From contig JANMOP010000014.1 in assembly GCA_031369365.1 (NCBI GenBank), positions 4,680 to 68,679 of the forward strand: a DNA stretch of 64,000 nucleotides, given 5' to 3'. The DNA comes from Methylotenera sp. (GTDB taxonomy: Bacteria > Pseudomonadota > Gammaproteobacteria > Burkholderiales > Methylophilaceae). The notes below the pieces were generated by a model. That model had not been told where the DNA came from, ran no database searches, and saw only the letters and a list, made by a program, of their open reading frames with translations. Positions 5,699 to 35,639 of the stretch are shown piece after piece (the stretch's first letter is position 1; each line of letters starts with the position of its first letter). Made by a program: the position numbers and the translations under genes.

Positions 5699-6937
5699 TT
5701 AATGCAATTGATGTAACTCTAAATCTCGCAATTTAGGTGCATATTTAGCGGTAACCCCCACCACGCCAAGTGTCATTAATCCACCAAAAATCACCGAGGG
5801 TACTAAGCCCATTAAGCGAGCAGCCACGCCAGATTCAAACGCGCCTAGCTCGTTGGATGAGCCAATAAATATGCCATTGATGGCAGTGACACGTCCGCGC
5901 ATGGCATCGGGTGTGGCGAGCTGTAAAATAGTTTGTCGTAACACAACCGATACGCCATCAAAAATGCCAGAAAGCAATAATATGGCAGCCGCAACCCAAA
6001 AATAAGGGGTAAGCGCAAAGCCAATCATACACACGCCAAAGCCAGCAACCGCAAACAATAGCAAGCGTCCAGCGTGTAAGTTAATGGGGTGGCGCGTAAG
6101 CCATAAGCCTGTGGCAATAGCGCCTAAACCAGGCGCAGCGCGCAAAACCCCCAAACCTTCTGGCCCCATTTGGTATATATCTTGAATAAAAGCAGGCAGC
6201 ATGGCAACAGCTCCACCAAACAGCACGGCAAACATATCTAATGACAGCGCACCCAGAACGATTTGATTGCTAAACACAAAGCGCAAACCCTGCGCAATGC
6301 TGGCGAATACGGCAGGGCTGTTTTGCGCTGGCGGTGGTTCTTTTATTTTAAGAGATAACATAGCAAGCGCTGCGCCAGCACACAATAAAACGGCTATTTG
6401 GTAGGCGATAGTTTTATTAGCAAACCCAACCAGCAAGCCGCCCAATACGGGGCCAAGCACTAAGCCGATTTGAAACACCGAGCTACCAATACCCATGGCT
6501 TTGGCAAAATATTGGCGCGGAATAACAAGCGCGAATAAGGTGGTGTAGCTGGGGGCAATAAACGCACGTGCAACGCCAGTAAACGCGATTGAGCCATAAA
6601 TCCATAAACTCGCATTACCGTTAATCCAACCGAGTGAAATTGCGCTTAGTATCATTGCGTTAATCAATAATAACAGCGCCGCCAACATACCAAAAAATCG
6701 TCTTGAACAATAGTGATCTACCGCGTGGCCAGCAAATAGCGCACACGCAAAATAGGGAATCACCTCTGTAAGGCCGATTAAACCTAAAGCCAAAGTATCG
6801 TGTGTGATTTCGTAAATATGCCAGCCTACAGTGACCGCCATAATTTGGTAAGCCAGCACGATAAGCATGCGAAATGCTAATAATTTAAGAAATGCGTGAT
6901 TGTGTAATGTGAAAATTTGGGCATTAAAAGCTTGCAT
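5699..6937 (-). CDS. MFS transporter (DHA3/EntS-like exporter)
   Basis: 12 TM segments; LDMFAVLFGGAVAMLP, TPDAMRGRV and SSNELGAFESG motifs. Confidence 0.85.
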   Translation of the reverse strand: MQAFNAQIFTLHNHAFLKLLAFRMLIVLAYQIMAVTVGWHIYEITHDTLALGLIGLTEVIPYFACALFAGHAVDHYCSRRFFGMLAALLLLINAMILSAISLGWINGNASLWIYGSIAFTGVARAFIAPSYTTLFALVIPRQYFAKAMGIGSSVFQIGLVLGPVLGGLLVGFANKTIAYQIAVLLCAGAALAMLSLKIKEPPPAQNSPAVFASIAQGLRFVFSNQIVLGALSLDMFAVLFGGAVAMLPAFIQDIYQMGPEGLGVLRAAPGLGAIATGLWLTRHPINLHAGRLLLFAVAGFGVCMIGFALTPYFWVAAAILLLSGIFDGVSVVLRQTILQLATPDAMRGRVTAINGIFIGSSNELGAFESGVAARLMGLVPSVIFGGLMTLGVVGVTAKYAPKLRDLELHQLH

Positions 6938-27605: not shown

Positions 27606-30600
27606 ATGCAATCTGCAACAGAAATTAAACTACGCAAATTACTCTCTCAACGCATCCTAATTTTAGATGGCGCGATGGGTACCATGATTCAGCAATATAA
27701 GCTGACTGAGGCGGATTATCGCGGTGAACGATTTAAGGATTTTGCCTCACCCGCAGGCCAGCGCGAGTTATTTGTAAAAGGCAATAACGAGCTGTTAAGT
27801 TTGACTGCGCCGCACATCATTCAAGAAATACACGAGCAATATCTGGCCGCTGGCGCGGATATCATCGAAACTAATACTTTTGGTGCCACATCCGTGGCGC
27901 AAGACGATTACCACATGGCGCATTTGGTGTATGAGATGAATGTGGCTTCTGCCAAATTAGCAAAGGCTGCTTGCGATAAATATAGCACGCCCGATAAACC
28001 ACGCTTTGTAGCTGGCGCGCTTGGGCCAACGCCCAAAACCGCCAGCATTTCACCCGACGTGAATGATCCCGCCGCTCGTAACGTCAATTTTGACCAGTTA
28101 GTAAACGCTTACTTAGCGCAAACGCGCGCATTGGTAGAAGGTGGCGCGGATATTTTAATGGTGGAAACTATCTTTGATACGCTCAACTGCAAAGCCGCTT
28201 TGTTTGCGATTGATACGTTTTTTGAAGAGGTGGGTTACACATTGCCGCTGATGATTTCTGGCACGGTGACCGATGCTTCTGGTCGCATATTATCAGGTCA
28301 AACCGTGACCGCGTTTTGGAACTCAGTTCGCCACGCCAAACCGCTGACGATTGGCTTAAATTGTGCCTTAGGCGCCACTTTAATGCGGCCTTATGCCGAA
28401 GAATTAAGCAAAATCGCCGATACATTCGTGTGCATTTACCCCAATGCTGGCTTACCGAATCCAATGAGCGATACGGGTTTTGATGAAACGCCTGACGTGA
28501 CTTCTAGCTTAGTGAAAGAGTTTGCCAATAGCGGCTTTATCAATATCGCGGGCGGTTGCTGCGGGACTACGCCAGCACACATTAACGCGATTTATGAACA
28601 AGTTAAAAATATCGCCCCAAGAAAGGTGCTCCAGCAGCCAATAGCCATGCGGCTTGCAGGGCTAGAGCCTTTTATCATTAATGAAGAATCACTATTCGTC
28701 AACGTAGGCGAGCGCACCAATGTGACAGGCAGCAAAGCCTTTGCGCGGCTGATTATTAATGAGCAATACGACGAAGCGTTAAGTGTAGCGCGGCAGCAGG
28801 TAGAAAACGGCGCACAAGTCATCGACATTAATATGGATGAAGGCATGCTGGACGCCGTAAAAGCCATGACACATTTCCTGAATTTAATCGCCAGTGAGCC
28901 TGACATTGCCCGTGTGCCAATTATGATTGATTCCAGCAAATGGTCTGTCATTGAGGCTGGGCTTAAATGCGTGCAAGGCAAAGCCATTGTCAATTCTATC
29001 TCGATGAAAGAAGGCGAAGCCGAATTTTTGCGCCAAGCCAAGTTGTGTCGCCGTTACGGCGCAGCGGTGATTGTGATGGCATTTGACGAAAAAGGTCAAG
29101 CGGATACCTTTGCGCGTAAAACGGAAATCTGTGAAAGGGCGTATCGCTTGTTGGCGGGAGATCCAGAGTATCACCGTAGTCAACTATTGCAAGAAAACAG
29201 GCTAGAAAATGCACAAACACTGGCGTTTTTAAGTCCCTCGCCCGCGAGCGGGAGAGGGGTGGGGGAGAGGGGCGAAATATCCATCACCGCCCCTCTCCCT
29301 AGTCCTCTCCCGCCTGCGGGCGAGGGGACACACCCGCCCTCCCACTTGATGGGGTTGGGCATGCTCGAACTTAATACTCCCTCCCCCTTGATGGCGGAGG
29401 GTTGGGGAGAGGGTGAAAACAAGCGAGAGGATGAAATGTATGACAAGGGCATAGGCTTTCCGCCAGAAGACATCATCTTCGACCCTAACATTTTTGCCAT
29501 TGCCACCGGCATTGAAGAACACAACAACTACGCGGTGGATTTTATCGAGGCCACACGCTGGATTAAGCAAAATCTGCCACATGCCAAAATTTCGGGCGGC
29601 GTCTCGAATGTAAGCTTTAGCTTTCGCGGTAACGATCCCGCGCGCGAGGCCATTCACACGGTTTTCCTCTACCACGCCATTAAAGCAGGTATGACCATGG
29701 GTATTGTGAATGCGGGCATGATGGGCATTTATGATGATCTCGCACCAGAGTTAAAAGAGCGGGTGGAAGATGTAGTGCTAAATCGCAGGGATGACGCCAC
29801 CGAGCGCATGATTGAAATTGCTGGCACGCTAGTGGCAGGTGGTAAAAAAGTGGCTGCAACGCTAGAGTGGCGCGGCTCTGTGGATGATCCTGTGAGCGTG
29901 CAAAAACGCTTAGAACACGCCATGGTGCATGGCATTACCGACTTTATAGTGGAAGACATCGAAGAAGCGCGTGCGGCGGTTGAAGCATCTGGCGGCAGAC
30001 CAATTCACGTCATCGAAGGCCCACTGATGGACGGCATGAACGTGGTAGGTGATTTGTTTGGCCAAGGCAAAATGTTTTTGCCGCAAGTGGTGAAATCTGC
30101 TCGCGTGATGAAAACTGCCGTGGCACATTTAATCCCGTTTATTGAGGCCGAAAAAGTCTTAGAGCAAGAGCGCACAGGCGTGGTAGCCAAACCAAAAGGC
30201 AAAATCGTCATCGCCACTGTTAAGGGTGATGTGCATGACATCGGAAAAAATATTGTGAGTGTAGTATTGCAATGCAATAACTTTGAAGTAGTCAACATGG
30301 GCGTGATGGTACCAGCGGCGGAGATTTTAGCCATGGCAAACGCCGAAAACGCCGATATTATTGGCTTGGGCGGCCTGATTACGCCAAGCTTAGAAGAAAT
30401 GACGCACATTGCCAAAGAAATGCAGCGCGACCCCTATTTTGCTAATGCAAAAACGCCGCTGCTTATTGGCGGTGCCACATGCTCGCGCGCGCACACAGCG
30501 GTAAAAATCGCCCCGCATTACGATGGCCCCATTGTCTATGTGCCAGATGCCTCGCGCAGTGTAAGCGTGATGCAAAATCTACTCACACCCGAAACGCGCG

Positions 30601-31658
30601 GCGCGTATTTGGCCGAGATTCAAGCGGATTACCAAAAAGCGCGCGAGCAACATGCCAACAAAAAAGGCGTGCCAATACTCACTATTGCCGATGCGCGCGC
30701 AAACAAATCTAAATTAAGTTTTGCAGGTGAATTTGCACCCGTAAAGCCCAAGTTTATTGGTCGCCGCGTGTTTAAAAATATCGATTTAAGCTTAATCGCG
30801 CAATACATTGATTGGGCGCCATTCTTCCAAACGTGGGATTTAGCAGGCTTTTATCCCGCTATTTTGACTGATGAAGTAGTGGGCGAAGCCGCGACAAAAG
30901 TATTCGCCGAAGCGCAAAGTATGCTAAAAAAAATCATTGATGGCCGCTGGCTAACGGCTAACGGCGTCATCGCGCTAATGCCCGCCAATAGTGTGAATGA
31001 CGACGATATTGAAATTTATACTAACGAAAATAGAGATGAAGTTGCCTTCACCTATTACGGTATGCGCCAACAAAGCGTAAAGCCAGTGATAGAAGGCGTG
31101 GCGCGGCCAAACCAATGTTTAAGTGATTTTATTGCGCCTAAAAATAATGCAGATGATTACATCGGCTTATTTGCCGTAACCGCAGGTTTAAGTACTGAAA
31201 AAATCGAAAAACGCTTTATAGACGCGCAAGATGACTACAGTGGCATTATGTTCAAAAGCCTTGCAGATAGGCTTGCTGAAGCGTTTGCAGAATACATGCA
31301 CGAACGCATCCGCACCGATTTATGGGGTTATGCGAGCGACGAAAAGTTGCCTATAGACGCGTTAATCAAAGAAGAATATGCAGGCATTCGCCCTGCGCCT
31401 GGCTATCCTGCTTGCCCAGACCATACGGTAAAAGCCGATATGTTCAAGCTGCTGCAATGCGATGAAATTGATATGCAGCTCACCGATAGCTTCGCCATGA
31501 TGCCTGCGGCGGCAGTATCAGGTTTTTACTTTGCACATAAAGACGCTAAATACTTTAGTGTGGATAAAATTGGCACAGACCAACTAGAAGACATGGCAAA
31601 ACGCAGAAACTTGCCTAAAAGCTATTTAGAGCGCTGGTTAGCGCCGAATTTGGGATAA
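27606..31658 (+). CDS. metH: Cobalamin-dependent methionine synthase carrying a ~96-aa in-frame repeat-derived insertion
   Basis: Hcy domain (DGAMGT, GLNC, GGCCG), pterin domain (GERTNV, DSSK, IIFDPN), B12 domain (GDVHDIGKN) and AdoMet domain ([12 protein letters not shown]). One continuous 1350-aa ORF. Confidence 0.97.
29235..29415 (+). repeat. Intragenic palindromic repeat cluster in metH: 94-bp hairpin doublet plus two related units
   Basis: Arms at 29235-29273 and 29289-29328 are near-perfect inverted repeats. There is a partial unit near 29333-29360 and a full unit at 29377-29415. Confidence 0.9.
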
Positions 31659-31661
31659 ATT

Positions 31662-32303
31662 ATGCTGAAAAATGGCTATCAAATTGTTTATGTTTTAACA
31701 AACCCTGCAATGCCAGGGCTGGTAAAAATTGGCAAAACAACAAATTTAGAAATTGAAGTAAGAATGCGTCAGCTATATGGAACGGGTGTTCCAGTCCCAT
31801 TTGATTGCGCTTTTGCTTGCCAAGTAAAAAACGCGCATGAAGTTGAAAGAGCTCTACATTATGCTTTTGGAAATATAAGAATCAACCCGAATAGAGAGTT
31901 TTTTAAAATTGAAGCAGAAAGAGTTATTTCAGTTTTAAAGCTGCTCAAAGTTGACGACATAACTGCTGAATTTGAAGATAAAATTGAGGCAGGTACAGAA
32001 GAGGTAGATAAGCAATCTGCACAAATATTTAAAGAAACAATAAGACCTAGAATGAATTTTCATGAGCTTGCCATCCCAAACGAATCTATATTAGTTTCTA
32101 GAGATGGAAGGTTGCGAGTTAAAGTTATTGAAGCAAAAAAAGTTGATTTAAACGGCGAAAAAATGTCTTTAACTATGGCCACGCGCCGTTTACTGGGTTT
32201 GCCAGACAATCAGCCAATTCAGCCTTCGCCCTATTGGTCGTTTAATGGCAGATCAGTTATAGATATTTACGAAGACTATCACTCCGTTGCTGAAGAAGAA
32301 TAA
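31662..32303 (+). CDS. T5orf172/MUG113-type GIY-YIG nuclease with a probable RAMA-like C-terminal domain
   Basis: IVYVLTNPAMPGLVKIGKT, RMRQL..TGVP.PF and VERALH..F...RINPNREFF match T5orf172. The C-terminus VDLNGEKMSL..A.....PSPYWSFNGRS is RAMA-like by eye. The gene is AT-rich. Confidence 0.8.
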   Translation: MLKNGYQIVYVLTNPAMPGLVKIGKTTNLEIEVRMRQLYGTGVPVPFDCAFACQVKNAHEVERALHYAFGNIRINPNREFFKIEAERVISVLKLLKVDDITAEFEDKIEAGTEEVDKQSAQIFKETIRPRMNFHELAIPNESILVSRDGRLRVKVIEAKKVDLNGEKMSLTMATRRLLGLPDNQPIQPSPYWSFNGRSVIDIYEDYHSVAEEE

Positions 32304-32305
32304 CT

Positions 32306-33829
32306 ATGCACATTCACATTTTAGGTATTTGCGGTACATTCATGGGCGGTATTGCGGTGCTAGCTAAGCAGGCAGGGCATCGCGTCACGGGGTGCGATGC
32401 GAATGTTTACCCGCCAATGAGTACGCAATTAGAATCTCAAGGCATTGAGTTGATTGAGGGTTTTTCACCCGAGCAAACCAAGTTAAACCCAGATATTTAT
32501 GTGATTGGTAATGTGGTTTCGCGCGGTAATCCGTTGATGGAAGAAATTTTGAACCTTGGTTTGCCCTACATTTCTGGCCCGCAATGGTTGGCAGAGAATG
32601 TGTTGCAAGGTAAGTGGGTGTTGGCTGTAGCGGGCACGCACGGCAAAACTACAACGTCTTCAATGCTCGCATGGATACTGGAATATGCGGGTTTGGCACC
32701 TGGCTTTTTGATTGGTGGGGTGCCTGAGAATTTTGGCGTTTCGGCAAGGCTGCCGCAAGTGCCGCCTGCGCAAACGCTCAAGCTAGCAAGCCCCTCGCCC
32801 GCAAGCGGGAGAGGGGTTGGGGTGAGGAGCGGCTCGACTATGGGCATTGCCCCTCACCCTAGCCCTCTCCCGCCTGCGGGCGAGGGGATAAAAAACAAAG
32901 GTGATTTTTCACCCTTTTTTGTCATCGAAGCAGACGAATACGACACCGCTTTTTTTGATAAGCGCTCAAAATTTGTGCATTACCGCCCGCGTACGGCTAT
33001 TTTGAACAATTTAGAGTTTGATCACGCGGATATTTTTGATGACCTAAATGCGATTGAAAAGCAGTTTCATCATTTGATTCGCACTGTGCCGCAAAACGGT
33101 TTGGTGGTGATTAATGGCAAAGAAGATAGCCTAAAACGTGTTTTAGATAAAGGCTGCTGGAGCACGGTGGAGCATTTTGGCACGGATGCGGATTGGCAGG
33201 CAAAAAATGCACTAGGCGATGGTAGTTTCGACGTATATTTTAAGAATGAGCGCCAAGCGCATTTAAGCTGGCAGATGTTGGGCGAACACAACAGAATGAA
33301 TGCGCTGGCAGCAATTGCCGCGGCGCGCCATGTGGGCGTGGCGCCGTGTATTGCCATTGAAGCGCTTAGCGAATTTAAAAACGTAAAACGCCGTATGGAA
33401 ACCAAAGGCGTGGTGAATAATATTACAGTTTACGATGATTTCGCGCATCATCCAACCGCTATCGAGACTACATTAGCAGGCCTGCGAAGCAAGCTGGACG
33501 CGGTTTCTGGCGATGCCAAAAAAGGTGCTAGAATAATAGCGGTGCTAGAGCCGCGCAGCAACACCATGAAGCTGGGTGTGATGAAAGACGCGCTGCCTGC
33601 CAGTTTAAAACATGCAGATTTGGTGTTTTGTTATGGCGCAAATTTAGGTTGGGATGCAACAGAGGCATTAAAACCGATTGCAAATAAAGCCAAAACATTC
33701 GATGATTTAACTATGCTAGTAAACGCAATAAGCGCAGCAGCTAAATCGGGTGACCATATTCTAGTGATGAGTAATGGTGGTTTTGGTGGCGTGCATCAAA
33801 AAATTATTGATTCATTAGCGGAAAAATAA
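32306..33829 (+). CDS. mpl: Murein peptide ligase Mpl carrying an in-frame hairpin insertion
   Basis: MHIHILGICGTFMGG, AGTHGKTTT, FVIEADEYDTAFFDKRSKF, DDFAHHPTAI and EPRSNTM motifs. Confidence 0.97.
   Translation: MHIHILGICGTFMGGIAVLAKQAGHRVTGCDANVYPPMSTQLESQGIELIEGFSPEQTKLNPDIYVIGNVVSRGNPLMEEILNLGLPYISGPQWLAENVLQGKWVLAVAGTHGKTTTSSMLAWILEYAGLAPGFLIGGVPENFGVSARLPQVPPAQTLKLASPSPASGRGVGVRSGSTMGIAPHPSPLPPAGEGIKNKGDFSPFFVIEADEYDTAFFDKRSKFVHYRPRTAILNNLEFDHADIFDDLNAIEKQFHHLIRTVPQNGLVVINGKEDSLKRVLDKGCWSTVEHFGTDADWQAKNALGDGSFDVYFKNERQAHLSWQMLGEHNRMNALAAIAAARHVGVAPCIAIEALSEFKNVKRRMETKGVVNNITVYDDFAHHPTAIETTLAGLRSKLDAVSGDAKKGARIIAVLEPRSNTMKLGVMKDALPASLKHADLVFCYGANLGWDATEALKPIANKAKTFDDLTMLVNAISAAAKSGDHILVMSNGGFGGVHQKIIDSLAEK
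32792..32888 (+). repeat. Intragenic 97-bp hairpin doublet in mpl
   Basis: Left arm is 33/36 and right arm 38/40 identical to the metH copy; loop is 18 nt versus 15 nt. Confidence 0.92.
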
Positions 33830-33832
33830 ACA

Positions 33833-34837
33833 TTGGCCGCTGTTATTAAACAAACCGAAGTGGCAGCGGTAGCATTAGCCAACATAGTGAGCAAGCTTAA
33901 AACATTAAGTGCGTTTGCGGTAGCAATATGGGTTTCTATCGCGATTCATGCAGCAATCTTAACTATTCATTTTCAGCCCGAGCTCAAAAAGCTCAAAGAC
34001 AGCTTACCTTCGCTAGAGGTAGTTTTAGTCAATGCTAAAACTAAAAGTGCGCCCGATAAAGCTGAATTATTAGCCCAAGCCAATTTAGATCGCGGTGGCA
34101 ATACCGAGGCTAATCGCAAGATGAAAACCGCGCTGCCTGCGCCCAAAGAGAAAACTACCGAAGTTAAATTGCAGCCAAATTCTGAAGCGCGTAGTGCAGC
34201 TAAATCGGCCAAAATGAAAGCACTTGAGGCGCGTGAACAAAAGCGTGTGGATGAGCTGGAAAAACAAGCGCAAGAGCTGCTAACACAAATTAAATCGACA
34301 AAAAAAATAGAATCGAATCCTACCCAAAATGTAGCTTCGGCCGAACCTGAGCTGGGCGAACAAAAAACCGAAGCAAAATCGTTAGATCGTGCAGAATTAA
34401 TTGCGGCCAGCCTAGAAATGGATAGGCTACAAGCACAAATTGATAAGCAACAAGACGAATACCAGAAACGTCCTAAAAAGAAATATATTGGGGCACGCAC
34501 TAAAGAGTACCGATTCGCTTTATATGTGGAATCGTGGCGGCAAAAAGTGGAGCGTATTGGCAATATGAATTACCCCGAGGCGGCAAAAACACAAAAGTTG
34601 TATGGGCAATTACGCATGACGGTTGCTATAAAAGCCGATGGTAGCTTAGAAAGCGTGGTGATTGACCAGCCATCAAATCACAAAGTGTTAGACGAAGCGG
34701 CCAAGCGCATTGTAGAGCTGGCAGCGCCGTATGCGATTTTCCCTGAGGATATTAGGCGCGATACCGATATCTTATACATTACACGCACCTGGACATTTAC
34801 GCAGGAAGATTTACTAGCGACTAAAGGTTCAGATTAA
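33833..34837 (+). CDS. TonB/TolA-family energy transducer
   Basis: N-terminal TM (SIAIHAAIL), LEVVLVN, a coiled coil, and a TonB-C-like tail (YVESWRQKVERIG..NYP; ITRTW.F). TTG start is uncertain. Confidence 0.8.
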   Translation: MAAVIKQTEVAAVALANIVSKLKTLSAFAVAIWVSIAIHAAILTIHFQPELKKLKDSLPSLEVVLVNAKTKSAPDKAELLAQANLDRGGNTEANRKMKTALPAPKEKTTEVKLQPNSEARSAAKSAKMKALEAREQKRVDELEKQAQELLTQIKSTKKIESNPTQNVASAEPELGEQKTEAKSLDRAELIAASLEMDRLQAQIDKQQDEYQKRPKKKYIGARTKEYRFALYVESWRQKVERIGNMNYPEAAKTQKLYGQLRMTVAIKADGSLESVVIDQPSNHKVLDEAAKRIVELAAPYAIFPEDIRRDTDILYITRTWTFTQEDLLATKGSD

Positions 34838-35148
34838 TGACTGATTACTATCAGCACCACGTATTTTTCTGCTTAAATCAACGCGAGCATGGCGAAGCAT
34901 GTTGCATGAATAAAGGCGCCGAAGCGGCGTTTGACCACATGAAAGCGCGCGTGAAAAAACTAGGCTTAAACGGCGAAGGTAAAGTGCGTATTAACCGTTC
35001 TGGCTGTTTGGATAGATGCGGGCTTGGGCCATTAATGGTGATTTATCCGCAAGCCGTTTGGTACACATTTGTTGATAATGACGATATTGATGAAATTATC
35101 GAAAGCCATCTGGTGAATGACAAAGTAGTAGAGCGTTTGGTTGTGTAG
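34837..35148 (+). CDS. Thioredoxin-like [2Fe-2S] ferredoxin
   Basis: HVFFCLN...C, RSGCLDRC..GP..VIYP..VWY motifs. Confidence 0.92.
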   Translation: MTDYYQHHVFFCLNQREHGEACCMNKGAEAAFDHMKARVKKLGLNGEGKVRINRSGCLDRCGLGPLMVIYPQAVWYTFVDNDDIDEIIESHLVNDKVVERLVV

Positions 35149-35205
35149 GAGCGACGACCCCGTCGCGAAATAATATGCAAATCGTGACGGGGTCGTCGCT
35201 CCTAC
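35145..35205. repeat. GTAG-family REP doublet (REPIN) that overlaps the stop codons of both convergent genes
   Basis: GTAGGAGCGACGACCCCGTCGCGA, a 13-nt spacer, then an inverted copy (23/24 identical). TAG 35146-35148 and minus-strand TAG 35204-35202 lie within the GTAG ends. Confidence 0.88.
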
Positions 35206-35639
35206 ATAGCGCAATTAATATGTGCGCTTATTTTTTCTTTTAGTAATTGTTTAGATGCACTGGAAAGGTTGCTGGTATTGCCTTTACGCATCTTATCGCC
35301 CCAATGACTATTGGGAAAATGTTTGTCATCTGCAAAGCGCGGAATGATATGCCAATGCACATGCGGCGTTTTGTTGCCAAGGCTCGCCAGGTTAATTTTA
35401 TCGGGGTGAATCACTTCGCGCATCGCGGTTTCTACAGCAAAAACCACTGTCATCATACGCACGCGATTTTCAGGCGGCAAATCAGTCATTTCTTTGATGT
35501 GCTCTAAGAGTTCAACGCGGCAATAGGCGGGGTAATCCGCGTCGTTTAGTAACACCACGCGGCAAAAATCGTCTTGCCAAAGTATTTCATGTGGGCTGGG
35601 TTGGCCTTGTAAGCTAGCAATGCATAGTGGGCAGGTCAT
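35202..35639 (-). CDS. HIT family protein
   Basis: CPLC, KINLASLGN and histidine triad PHVHWHIIPR. Confidence 0.9.
   Translation of the reverse strand: MTCPLCIASLQGQPSPHEILWQDDFCRVVLLNDADYPAYCRVELLEHIKEMTDLPPENRVRMMTVVFAVETAMREVIHPDKINLASLGNKTPHVHWHIIPRFADDKHFPNSHWGDKMRKGNTSNLSSASKQLLKEKISAHINCAM

Follow-up and report, generated by a model that had tools for sequence, protein, structure and literature searches.

The 64,000-nucleotide (nt) window analyzed here, from contig JANMOP010000014.1 of Methylotenera sp., carries an intact mpl gene whose coding sequence is interrupted, between the motifs SARL and FFVIEADE, by a palindromic repeat of 97 nt, and a sister copy of this repeat lies in the metH gene of the same window. 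The initial annotation had described the element in mpl as a hairpin translated within a loop of the protein, and the coordinates confirm that it is read in frame within Mpl (Table 1). Based on the results summarized below, we consider it probable that selfish repeat DNA entered a permissive loop of Mpl in frame and has since been carried as a translated, functionally inert passenger.

The identity of the host gene is clear. Its product, an enzyme of cell-wall recycling, matched the TIGR01081 mpl profile with 730 bits (cut-off 389) and the PDB structures 3EAG (E = 1e-144) and 3HN7 (E = 1e-132), the Mpl proteins of N. meningitidis and Psychrobacter being the nearest solved structures; no identical protein is on record. 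In E. coli K-12 Mpl the corresponding loop reads SAHLGESDFFVIEADE. About 53 residues had been reported between SARL and FFVIEADE, against only a few in E. coli; the exact count is 54, and the short E. coli loop was confirmed, with the correction that its motif is SAHL and not SARL.

Table 1. Positions in the window of the mpl and metH features discussed in the text
Feature	Position	Strand	Basis
mpl (UDP-N-acetylmuramate:L-Ala-gamma-D-Glu-meso-DAP ligase), 507 residues, intact open reading frame (ORF)	32306..33829	+	ORF list
Whole loop from SARL (residues 146-149) to FFVIEADE (204-211): 54 codons, P150-P203	32753..32914	+	Translation
Inferred inserted block, 126 nt (29-nt left flank + 97-nt hairpin), boundaries approximate	32762..32887	+	Codon comparison of L281 with filled alleles L282-L288
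Left flank PPAQTLKLA-S, possibly belonging to the element, possibly a diverged duplicate of ancestral codons (PKQ..KS)	32762..32790	+	Allele comparison
97-nt hairpin, inverted dimer of TM/BoxC units	32791..32887	+	Arms, fold, palindrome matches
Left TM unit, CCCTCGCCC GCAAGC GGGAGAGGG GTT GGGGTGAGG	32792..32827	+	Exact match to E. coli TM consensus
Central spacer (hairpin apex; position of the DUF559 gene in full cassettes)	32828..32851	+	Alignment to cassette L291
Right TM unit, CCCTCGCCC GCAGGC GGGAGAGGG CTA GGGTGAGG	32852..32886	-	Exact match to E. coli TM consensus
Tail IKNKGDFSP, 9 residues, inferred diverged ancestral loop (P)KQDAKSISP	32888..32914	+	Tails of filled alleles align with the empty site
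FFVIEADE strand and acidic motif of the Mg/ATP site, unchanged	32915..32938	+	Invariant in Mpl alignments; strand 204-208 with pLDDT of about 96
Sister hairpin in metH (ORF 27606-31658)	29234..29327	+	Palindrome matches, TM consensus
Second TM unit in the metH insert, type-B kind (half of one type-B unit), CCCTCCCCC TTGATG GCGGAGGG TT GGGGAGAGGG	29379..29413	+	Sequence

The hairpin has arms of 31 nt that are 90% complementary, and folded as RNA it reached -88.2 kcal/mol compared with -48.0 +/- 3.6 for shuffled sequences (z = -11.1; 0 of 200 shuffles equaled it). No family in Rfam matched it; the hits were sub-threshold look-alikes, hairpins of eukaryotic microRNAs. The sequence fits a repeat described in E. 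coli, the triplex motif (TM), with the consensus 5'-CCCTCNCCC N3-6 GGGNGAGGG N3 GGGNGAGGG (PMC4666352). Three exact matches to this consensus were present in the window, with 0.00 expected: the two units of the mpl hairpin, which are inverted with 24 nt between them, and one unit at 29235-29270 (+). Each half of the hairpin fits the consensus without a mismatch, and the hairpin is therefore an inverted TM dimer; by this motif it is assigned to the BoxC/PIT/TM repeat family. The block order (Y-block, R-block, R-block) would be compatible with an intramolecular purine-motif triplex. The arm palindrome had eight matches in the window (0.00 expected), all in the metH and mpl copies, and every TM-like unit of the window lies inside one of these two genes, none of them being intergenic.

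The family is widespread. Blastn with the right-hand unit gave stretches of 48-56 nt, 80-83% identical, in 1841 E. coli genomes; all of them were chromosomal, and the listed examples lay outside any annotated feature. An arm of 25 nt was present in at least 120 contigs in a scan of one genome per species, with Proteobacteria, Planctomycetota, Armatimonadota and others among the matches listed, most of which were single units continuing as GGGG(T/A)GAGGG. A protein search with the 44-residue insert peptide gave no match, which does not argue for absence, since its index requires shared 5-mers and the DNA scan located the unit in many genomes. To our knowledge, no mechanism of spread has been described for BoxC/TM, which has been an orphan repeat for over 30 years. 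In E. coli the repeat is always intergenic (all 23 copies of K-12), occurs as inverted TM pairs at five loci, has no transposase or mobility function near its copies, and occupies loci that differ unusually strongly between strains (Holder et al., 2015; PMC4666352).

The evidence that the element was inserted comes from a census of the loop in the 120 closest Mpl proteins, which are 79-93% identical outside it and were taken from a set of 5.8 billion proteins searched with an insert-free query. The loop has 13 residues, PQ(V/T/A/Q)PKQDAKSISP, in 64 of them, including the closest relative (P0002, 93% identical), and the N. meningitidis protein (3EAG) has a 13-residue loop too. A further 49 are filled, with loops of 25-70 residues in 23 different lengths. 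The remaining seven alleles (P0031, P0037, P0058, P0062, P0066, P0076, and P0106) have five extra residues at the loop, PQ.P-ALA(K/Q)S-KQD.KS.SP, which could have arisen by a small duplication or be what a lost insert left behind. Among 160 more distant Mpl genes of Betaproteobacteria the loop ranged from 4 to about 32 residues, and the 150 best representatives of clusters at 50% identity aligned with the window's protein as two blocks, 1 to about 150 and about 202 to 504, their loops having 13 residues or fewer.

At the DNA level, alignment with sister strains, which the initial annotation had proposed as a check, revealed the empty site: allele L281 reads GTG CCT AAG CAA GAT GCA AAA AGC ATT TCA CCT TTT. 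Where L281 has 30 nt the window has 153, a net 123 nt (41 codons) more. The tail of the filled allele L287, GCT AAG CAT CTG GAT GAT GAT AGC TCG CCT, aligns with the stretch of L281 from CCT AAG to TCA CCT, and the two flanks of the mpl insert, both short, A-rich and diverged, resemble ancestral loop codons. The earlier description needs two corrections: the net gain is 41 codons, and the last nine residues look like a diverged remnant of the ancestral loop. Contigs from freshwater-sediment metagenomes span both junctions with 0-3 mismatches (X5 record 25, 32328-32822; X1 record 6, 32796-32980), so that the join is not an assembly artefact of this record, and contigs of related populations in those metagenomes omit the insert. 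The closest named relatives and the run labels suggest as the source a Methylotenera-like member of the Methylophilaceae, probably from freshwater sediment. These comparisons indicate that the 54-residue loop arose by insertion of repeat DNA. It is hardly credible that the long loop is instead an ancestral or lineage-specific low-complexity protein segment, or an assembly chimera: loop length is indeed naturally variable, but the outgroups and the nearest relatives have the 13-residue loop, the DNA is a repeat common to metH and to genomes of many phyla, and the insert is found in independent assemblies as well as in metagenome contigs. Orthologues with the same peptide but no repeat DNA, which would have made it ancestral protein sequence, were not found among the relatives and cluster representatives.

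The effect of the insert on the protein was assessed with an AlphaFold (AF2) model built from 103 diverse Mpl sequences; a shallow alignment of 60 near-identical sequences gave a predicted local distance difference test score (pLDDT) of just 53 and an unusable model. The model from the diverse set has a mean pLDDT of 91.5 and a predicted template modeling score (pTM) of 0.91, and is predicted to keep the Mur-ligase fold. Its best Foldseek matches were the Mpl structures 3HN7 and 3EAG (template modeling score 0.96 on the target) and MurC (0.80). The pLDDT fell below 50 solely at residues 165-193, and residues 149-203 have zero predicted secondary structure between strands 147-148 and 204-208. 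According to the model, the insert leaves the central ATP-binding domain as an unstructured loop where one strand turns into the next, and enters the N-terminal end of the strand whose C-terminal end bears EADE. The structural model proposed in the initial annotation therefore bore out its view of a variable loop, whereas its placement next to the EADE motif applies to the linear sequence only. In Mur ligases the active site is found at the C-terminal edge of that central sheet, and the insert thus probably sits away from the active-site edge. The inserted peptide is rich in Pro, Ser, and Gly, and the ORF and all Mur-ligase motifs are intact despite it; with its reading frame uninterrupted, its motifs conserved and its predicted fold preserved, the enzyme with the insert presumably still works.

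An in-frame peptide encoded by a hairpin that is very stable as RNA might also be an adaptive gain, in which either the peptide lets Mpl interact or be regulated in a new way, or mpl translation or stability is adjusted by the mRNA hairpin, and the insert is indeed in frame in many alleles. However, strains with more than 85% identity elsewhere differ freely in its presence, length (25-70 residues) and sequence, 64 of the 120 proteins are without it, the repeat is also found in unrelated proteins, the insert is predicted to be disordered, and PIT/BoxC has neither promoter nor terminator activity in E. coli (PMC4666352). We regard an adaptive gain as quite unlikely.

The window holds one allele of an unstable, multi-allelic site. 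A single insertion had been supposed at first; insertion stands, but not as one simple event. At least four repeat types are found in the filled alleles overall. Type A, the kind of TM dimer seen in the window, occupies 22 of the 49, and type B, a second TM variant (CCCTCCCCC TTGAT GGGGGAGGG CT GGGGAGAGGG, read as NTPSPLMGEGWGEGD...PSPQPSPTRGEG), occupies 11; an unrelated REP-type hairpin (type D, LMVRQAHHER...VSPELVEG) is present in seven, and the other nine are composites and shortened remnants. Left flanks, cores, and tails are found in mixed sets with several distinct junctions. In a tree based on the rest of Mpl, filled and empty alleles are interleaved, a pattern compatible with recombination between strains, with inserts being gained and lost repeatedly, or with the two together. 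The variability amounts to 23 lengths in 49 filled alleles, besides 64 empty ones, among proteins more than 79% identical; these counts come from this loop alone.

The same loop was also filled outside the family. In the Gallionellaceae metagenome-assembled genome (MAG) L107 (CAZXDK010000023.1; about 6148-6190, -), a TM monomer lies in the identical Mpl loop and frame, and the relatives of L107 have SARITDAP-FFVIEADE with no insert; to judge from these sequences, the loop was occupied independently in Gallionellaceae. One ancient insertion that diversified in place by deletion, nested insertion and gene conversion, and spread by homologous recombination, would account for the left junction PQVP-P and the tail variants (K.LDDGSSP or ..IDAQNCSP) common to nearly all filled alleles, and for the combinatorial mixtures of left flanks, cores and tails; repeated hits on the loop inside this clade would then not be needed. 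It agrees less well with the differing junctions PQVPK-KTT.. (P0075), PQVPA-LMVRQ.. (P0107, P0119), and GEGNM-SP (P0028), with cores whose sequences are unrelated (types A and B of TM, and the VSPELVEG-type hairpin), with the separate TM monomer of Gallionellaceae, or with the other repeat-like peptides found at this place in Comamonadaceae. We therefore see in a single ancient insertion a real possibility, though a rather doubtful one. Mpl proteins of the Comamonadaceae type (L069 Variovorax, L077 Polaromonas, and the metagenome contig L230) have loops of 25-32 residues in which no TM motif was found. Their peptides, of which SAAPGRPKQASAPSGGS is an example, resemble in our view another repeat family common in Comamonadaceae.

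The copy in metH is 82% identical to the mpl hairpin and has the same orientation and reading frame; its right arm, which would be the fourth TM half, is degenerate. Relatives differ at the metH site, with an empty allele in L288 (RAYDLLVSTGFPPED) and a filled one in L284. That mpl and metH received the same element in independent insertions, as had been proposed, is upheld by the single repeat consensus and by the empty alleles available at both sites (mpl in L281, metH in L288). The type-B unit of metH has its counterpart in the Mpl allele L283, CCCTCCCCC TTGATG GGGGAGGG CT GGGGAGAGGG. The metH insert as a whole (29150-29450) is a composite of about 90 residues, consisting of a novel left flank, the type-A TM dimer, a spacer, and the single type-B TM unit, and is positioned in the pterin-binding module. 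Type-A Mpl alleles have a left flank P(A/K)QT(I/L)(K/Q)Q.S, which is partly present at the window's metH copy and not at that of L284. An AQTL left flank, common to mpl and metH of the window, was considered as a part of the element and was dropped, as the metH copy of L284 is without it.

The gene between metH and mpl (31662-32303 in the window; the same slot in L282-L286) varies by strain. The slot contains a T5orf172/MUG113 protein in the window, a protein with Schlafen-AlbA_2 and HATPase_c_4 domains in L284, RhuM with a helix-turn-helix domain in L286, a weak PD-(D/E)XK match in L285, and ORFs without an assigned family in L282 and L283. It represents a small variable islet beside the unstable loop, possibly related to defense.

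Translated TM units are not confined to these two genes. In a survey of 135 TM units in the sampled contigs, in which an open frame was defined as at least 60 codons on each side, 48 units lay in long open frames, and Pfam domains surrounded the unit in 18 of 19 long frames tested. The hosts supported by Pfam include PurL, HrpA (twice), Cas10/Cmr2, a TPS-secreted protein, UvrD, HsdM (twice), MmeI-like and Eco57I-like enzymes, another DNA methylase, MetRS, a P-type ATPase, a RuBisCO-like protein, KAS III, DnaG, another Mur ligase, and a YgiQ radical-SAM protein. In 13 of the 19 tested frames the unit read PSPA(S/G)GRG.GGEG, which is the frame of the window, and none used the Arg-rich frames (PLSRKRAR, PLARLRER), though those are also free of stop codons. 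This bias may reflect a filter for flexible, harmless peptides.

A possible source of the repeat was found in genes with a DUF559 domain. In the first case, the Methylotenera MAG L143, the domain lies between two inverted TM units, and all five DUF559 matches in contigs selected for TM adjoin TM units. A protein-first sample was then examined, consisting of 80 YcjD-like DUF559 loci (L291-L370) from Alpha-, Beta-, Gamma-, and Deltaproteobacteria, Chloroflexota, Nitrospirota, Acidobacteriota, Actinomycetes, Firmicutes, and one bacterium of the candidate phyla radiation (CPR); full three-block TMs within 150 nt of the gene were counted. A complete TM was present at 62 of the 80 genes and on both sides of 36. 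Two-sided loci typically have a + unit upstream and a - unit downstream with the third block toward the gene, and form units of about 390-540 bp. The DUF559 loci had a TM density of 119 per 100 kb, whereas loci selected for Mpl (0.87 Mb) had 0.5-0.65 per 100 kb. The arms in the window align to the Methylotenera cassette L291 at 543-589 and 970-1015, with 106 of 121 bases identical overall and about 90% identity within the arms; the middle has no match, the Mpl hairpin having 24 nt where the cassette has its gene.

The DUF559 domain matched PDB 3HRL with E = 6e-23. In E. coli K-12 (1351204-1351760, L290), ycjD has a degenerate TM hairpin overlapping its stop codon. The fabI-ycjD spacer is, we believe, where BoxC was first noticed, and BoxC copy no. 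9 of Holder et al. is located in it, 170 nt downstream of ycjD. The DUF559 family has been placed together with Vsr and with a homing endonuclease from a group I intron (PMC3424549). No link between DUF559 and BoxC/TM was found in openly accessible papers that mention DUF559, the subscription literature being outside this search. We put forward, tentatively and with slightly more reserve than conviction, that the TM repeats are the terminal inverted repeats of a cross-phylum DUF559 (Vsr-fold) cassette of about 0.4-0.5 kb, that the hairpins are its gene-less derivatives, and that in-frame colonization of genes is routine for them.

On the contig that carries L291 (Methylotenera sp. JANOWA010000330.1), a whole cassette lies in frame in a YgiQ-like radical-SAM gene (L143:2-2011, -); the open frame of 670 residues contains Radical_SAM_N (33-232), DUF559 (296-400), and Radical_SAM (537-595). 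To judge from this frame, translation would yield the nuclease either as a domain inside the host protein or from a start codon within the gene. In several DUF559 loci a GTG lies within the third TM block or directly behind it, preceded by GGAG-like runs, and the left TM unit might also supply the translation start of DUF559.

Another route of mobilization is suggested by the REPINs, or REP doublets, which Bertels and Rainey reportedly connected with RAYT transposases in 2011. A REPIN mobilized by a RAYT (IS200/IS605-type) transposase would have the same architecture, a long hairpin built from two short palindromes in inverted orientation; REPs lying within genes and "decorating" their proteins have been described (PMC3733652), and the window itself has a GTAG-tagged REP pair at 35144-35206. 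However, the TM units are without a GTAG/CGTC end tag: they start CTCCCCTCG and end GGGGTGAGGG, or more fully (C)TCCCCTCGCCC and GGGG(T/A)GAGGG, with CTAG just in the inner spacer, and the gene that they flank in 62 of 80 cases is DUF559. Because the units are untagged and the flanked gene differs, a RAYT/REPIN origin was set aside as very unlikely. The pair at 35144-35206 is a 25-nt inverted repeat, 96% complementary (TGTAGGAGCGACGACCCCGTCGCGA / TCGTGACGGGGTCGTCGCTCCTACA), which overlaps the end of a 2Fe-2S thioredoxin-like ORF (34837-35148) and extends into the spacer behind it; it starts with GTAG and therefore resembles a classical RAYT-type REP doublet of a family other than TM.

The proposed passenger state of the Mpl insert would be the outcome of a survival filter, under which insertions persist in coding DNA if their length is a multiple of three and their frame free of stop codons, if they encode a flexible peptide rather than an Arg-rich one, and if the loop tolerates extra length. 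All of this applies to the Mpl loop, and recurrent occupancy in separate lineages would follow from this. Once in place, the G-run hairpin or triplex-forming DNA might promote slippage, deletion, and exchange with other repeat copies, and such instability would produce the Mpl allelic series, as described for E. coli BoxC loci. With regard to origin, the Mpl hairpin may be a gene-less form, similar to a MITE (a miniature transposable element with inverted repeats, derived from an IS element and non-autonomous), of the TM-DUF559-TM cassette of about 400-540 bp, and a DUF559 nuclease acting in trans would be the best candidate for copying or maintaining TM elements.

Several points weigh against this account. 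A target-site duplication, an exact breakpoint and a clean empty-to-filled junction were sought in the mpl alleles and not found, because the flanks are diverged and A-rich. Likewise, no consistent direct repeat was found outside 20 cassettes. Nothing indicates recent movement in this genome, because its two copies are just 82% identical, and the 64-kb window contains no DUF559 gene. We know of no DUF559 protein that acts as a transposase. The reverse order, with the nuclease gene homing into pre-existing TM dimers, could fit the same data, and the TM-DUF559 association could also be regulatory. Mpl is dispensable in E. coli, and an impaired Mpl might therefore persist. Covariation among five copies of the hairpin was uninformative as to a maintained RNA structure (95% of cells paired, one compensatory pair, 260 of 500 shuffles equal), and no RNA-seq run holding the mpl insert locus was found.

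With regard to significance, in-frame selfish palindromes were once a curiosity of Rickettsia and were later recognized among some REPs; BoxC/TM now adds enzymes of free-living Betaproteobacteria. The enzymes with TM inserts (Mpl, MetH, PurL, HrpA, UvrD, and MetRS) provide a natural map of insertion-tolerant loops, and the Mpl alleles form a natural population series in which hairpin/triplex DNA destabilizes a coding site while the frame stays unbroken. The association with DUF559 offers a concrete, testable candidate for the function that generates BoxC repeats. For annotation, PSPASGRG and PLPxAGEG peptides in many "hypothetical" and real proteins can be recognized as repeat-derived.

Among the known systems, the closest is BoxC/PIT/TM itself (Bergler, 1992; Hoyne et al., 2000; Holder et al., 2015; PMC4666352), with which the window copies share the pattern CCCTCNCCC-loop-GGGNGAGGG-loop-GGGNGAGGG including the conserved G/A mismatch variant, the inverted "palindromic" pairs, a very wide phylogenetic spread, and loci that differ between close strains and in which partial deletions retain the hairpin. 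They differ in that the intergenic copies of E. coli have no mobility function nearby, whereas the window copies and many Betaproteobacterial ones lie in frame in genes, and the family here brackets DUF559 genes. A MITE resembles the hairpin in having the terminal inverted repeats of a longer gene-bearing element (here L291) from which the gene is missing; it differs in that no target-site duplication was seen here and the putative partner encodes a predicted nuclease and not a transposase. The Rickettsia palindromic elements, RPE (Ogata et al., 2000, 2002, via PMC10969869), are likewise palindromes that entered unrelated housekeeping genes in frame, are translated, and occupy places at which the protein fold can accommodate them. 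They are presumably unrelated in sequence, about 100-150 bp long, AT-richer and confined to Rickettsia, whereas the TM element is G/C-rich and has a betaproteobacterial host. Intragenic REPs and REPINs (Di Nocera et al., 2013; PMC3733652) are also short palindromic units, often inverted doublets, that sometimes add 20-80 residues to real proteins and can flank a dedicated gene (the "REPtron"); the TM units are distinguished by the missing GTAG/CGTC tag and by a flanked gene for a Vsr-fold DUF559 endonuclease instead of a Y1 transposase. In-frame palindromic repeats are thus of an already known kind, as the RPE (PMC10969869) and the intragenic REPs (PMC3733652) demonstrate. New are the presence in frame within genes of the BoxC/TM family, formerly intergenic by description, the recurrent, multi-allelic occupancy of one Mpl loop, and the tight cross-phylum association of BoxC/TM with a Vsr-fold endonuclease gene.

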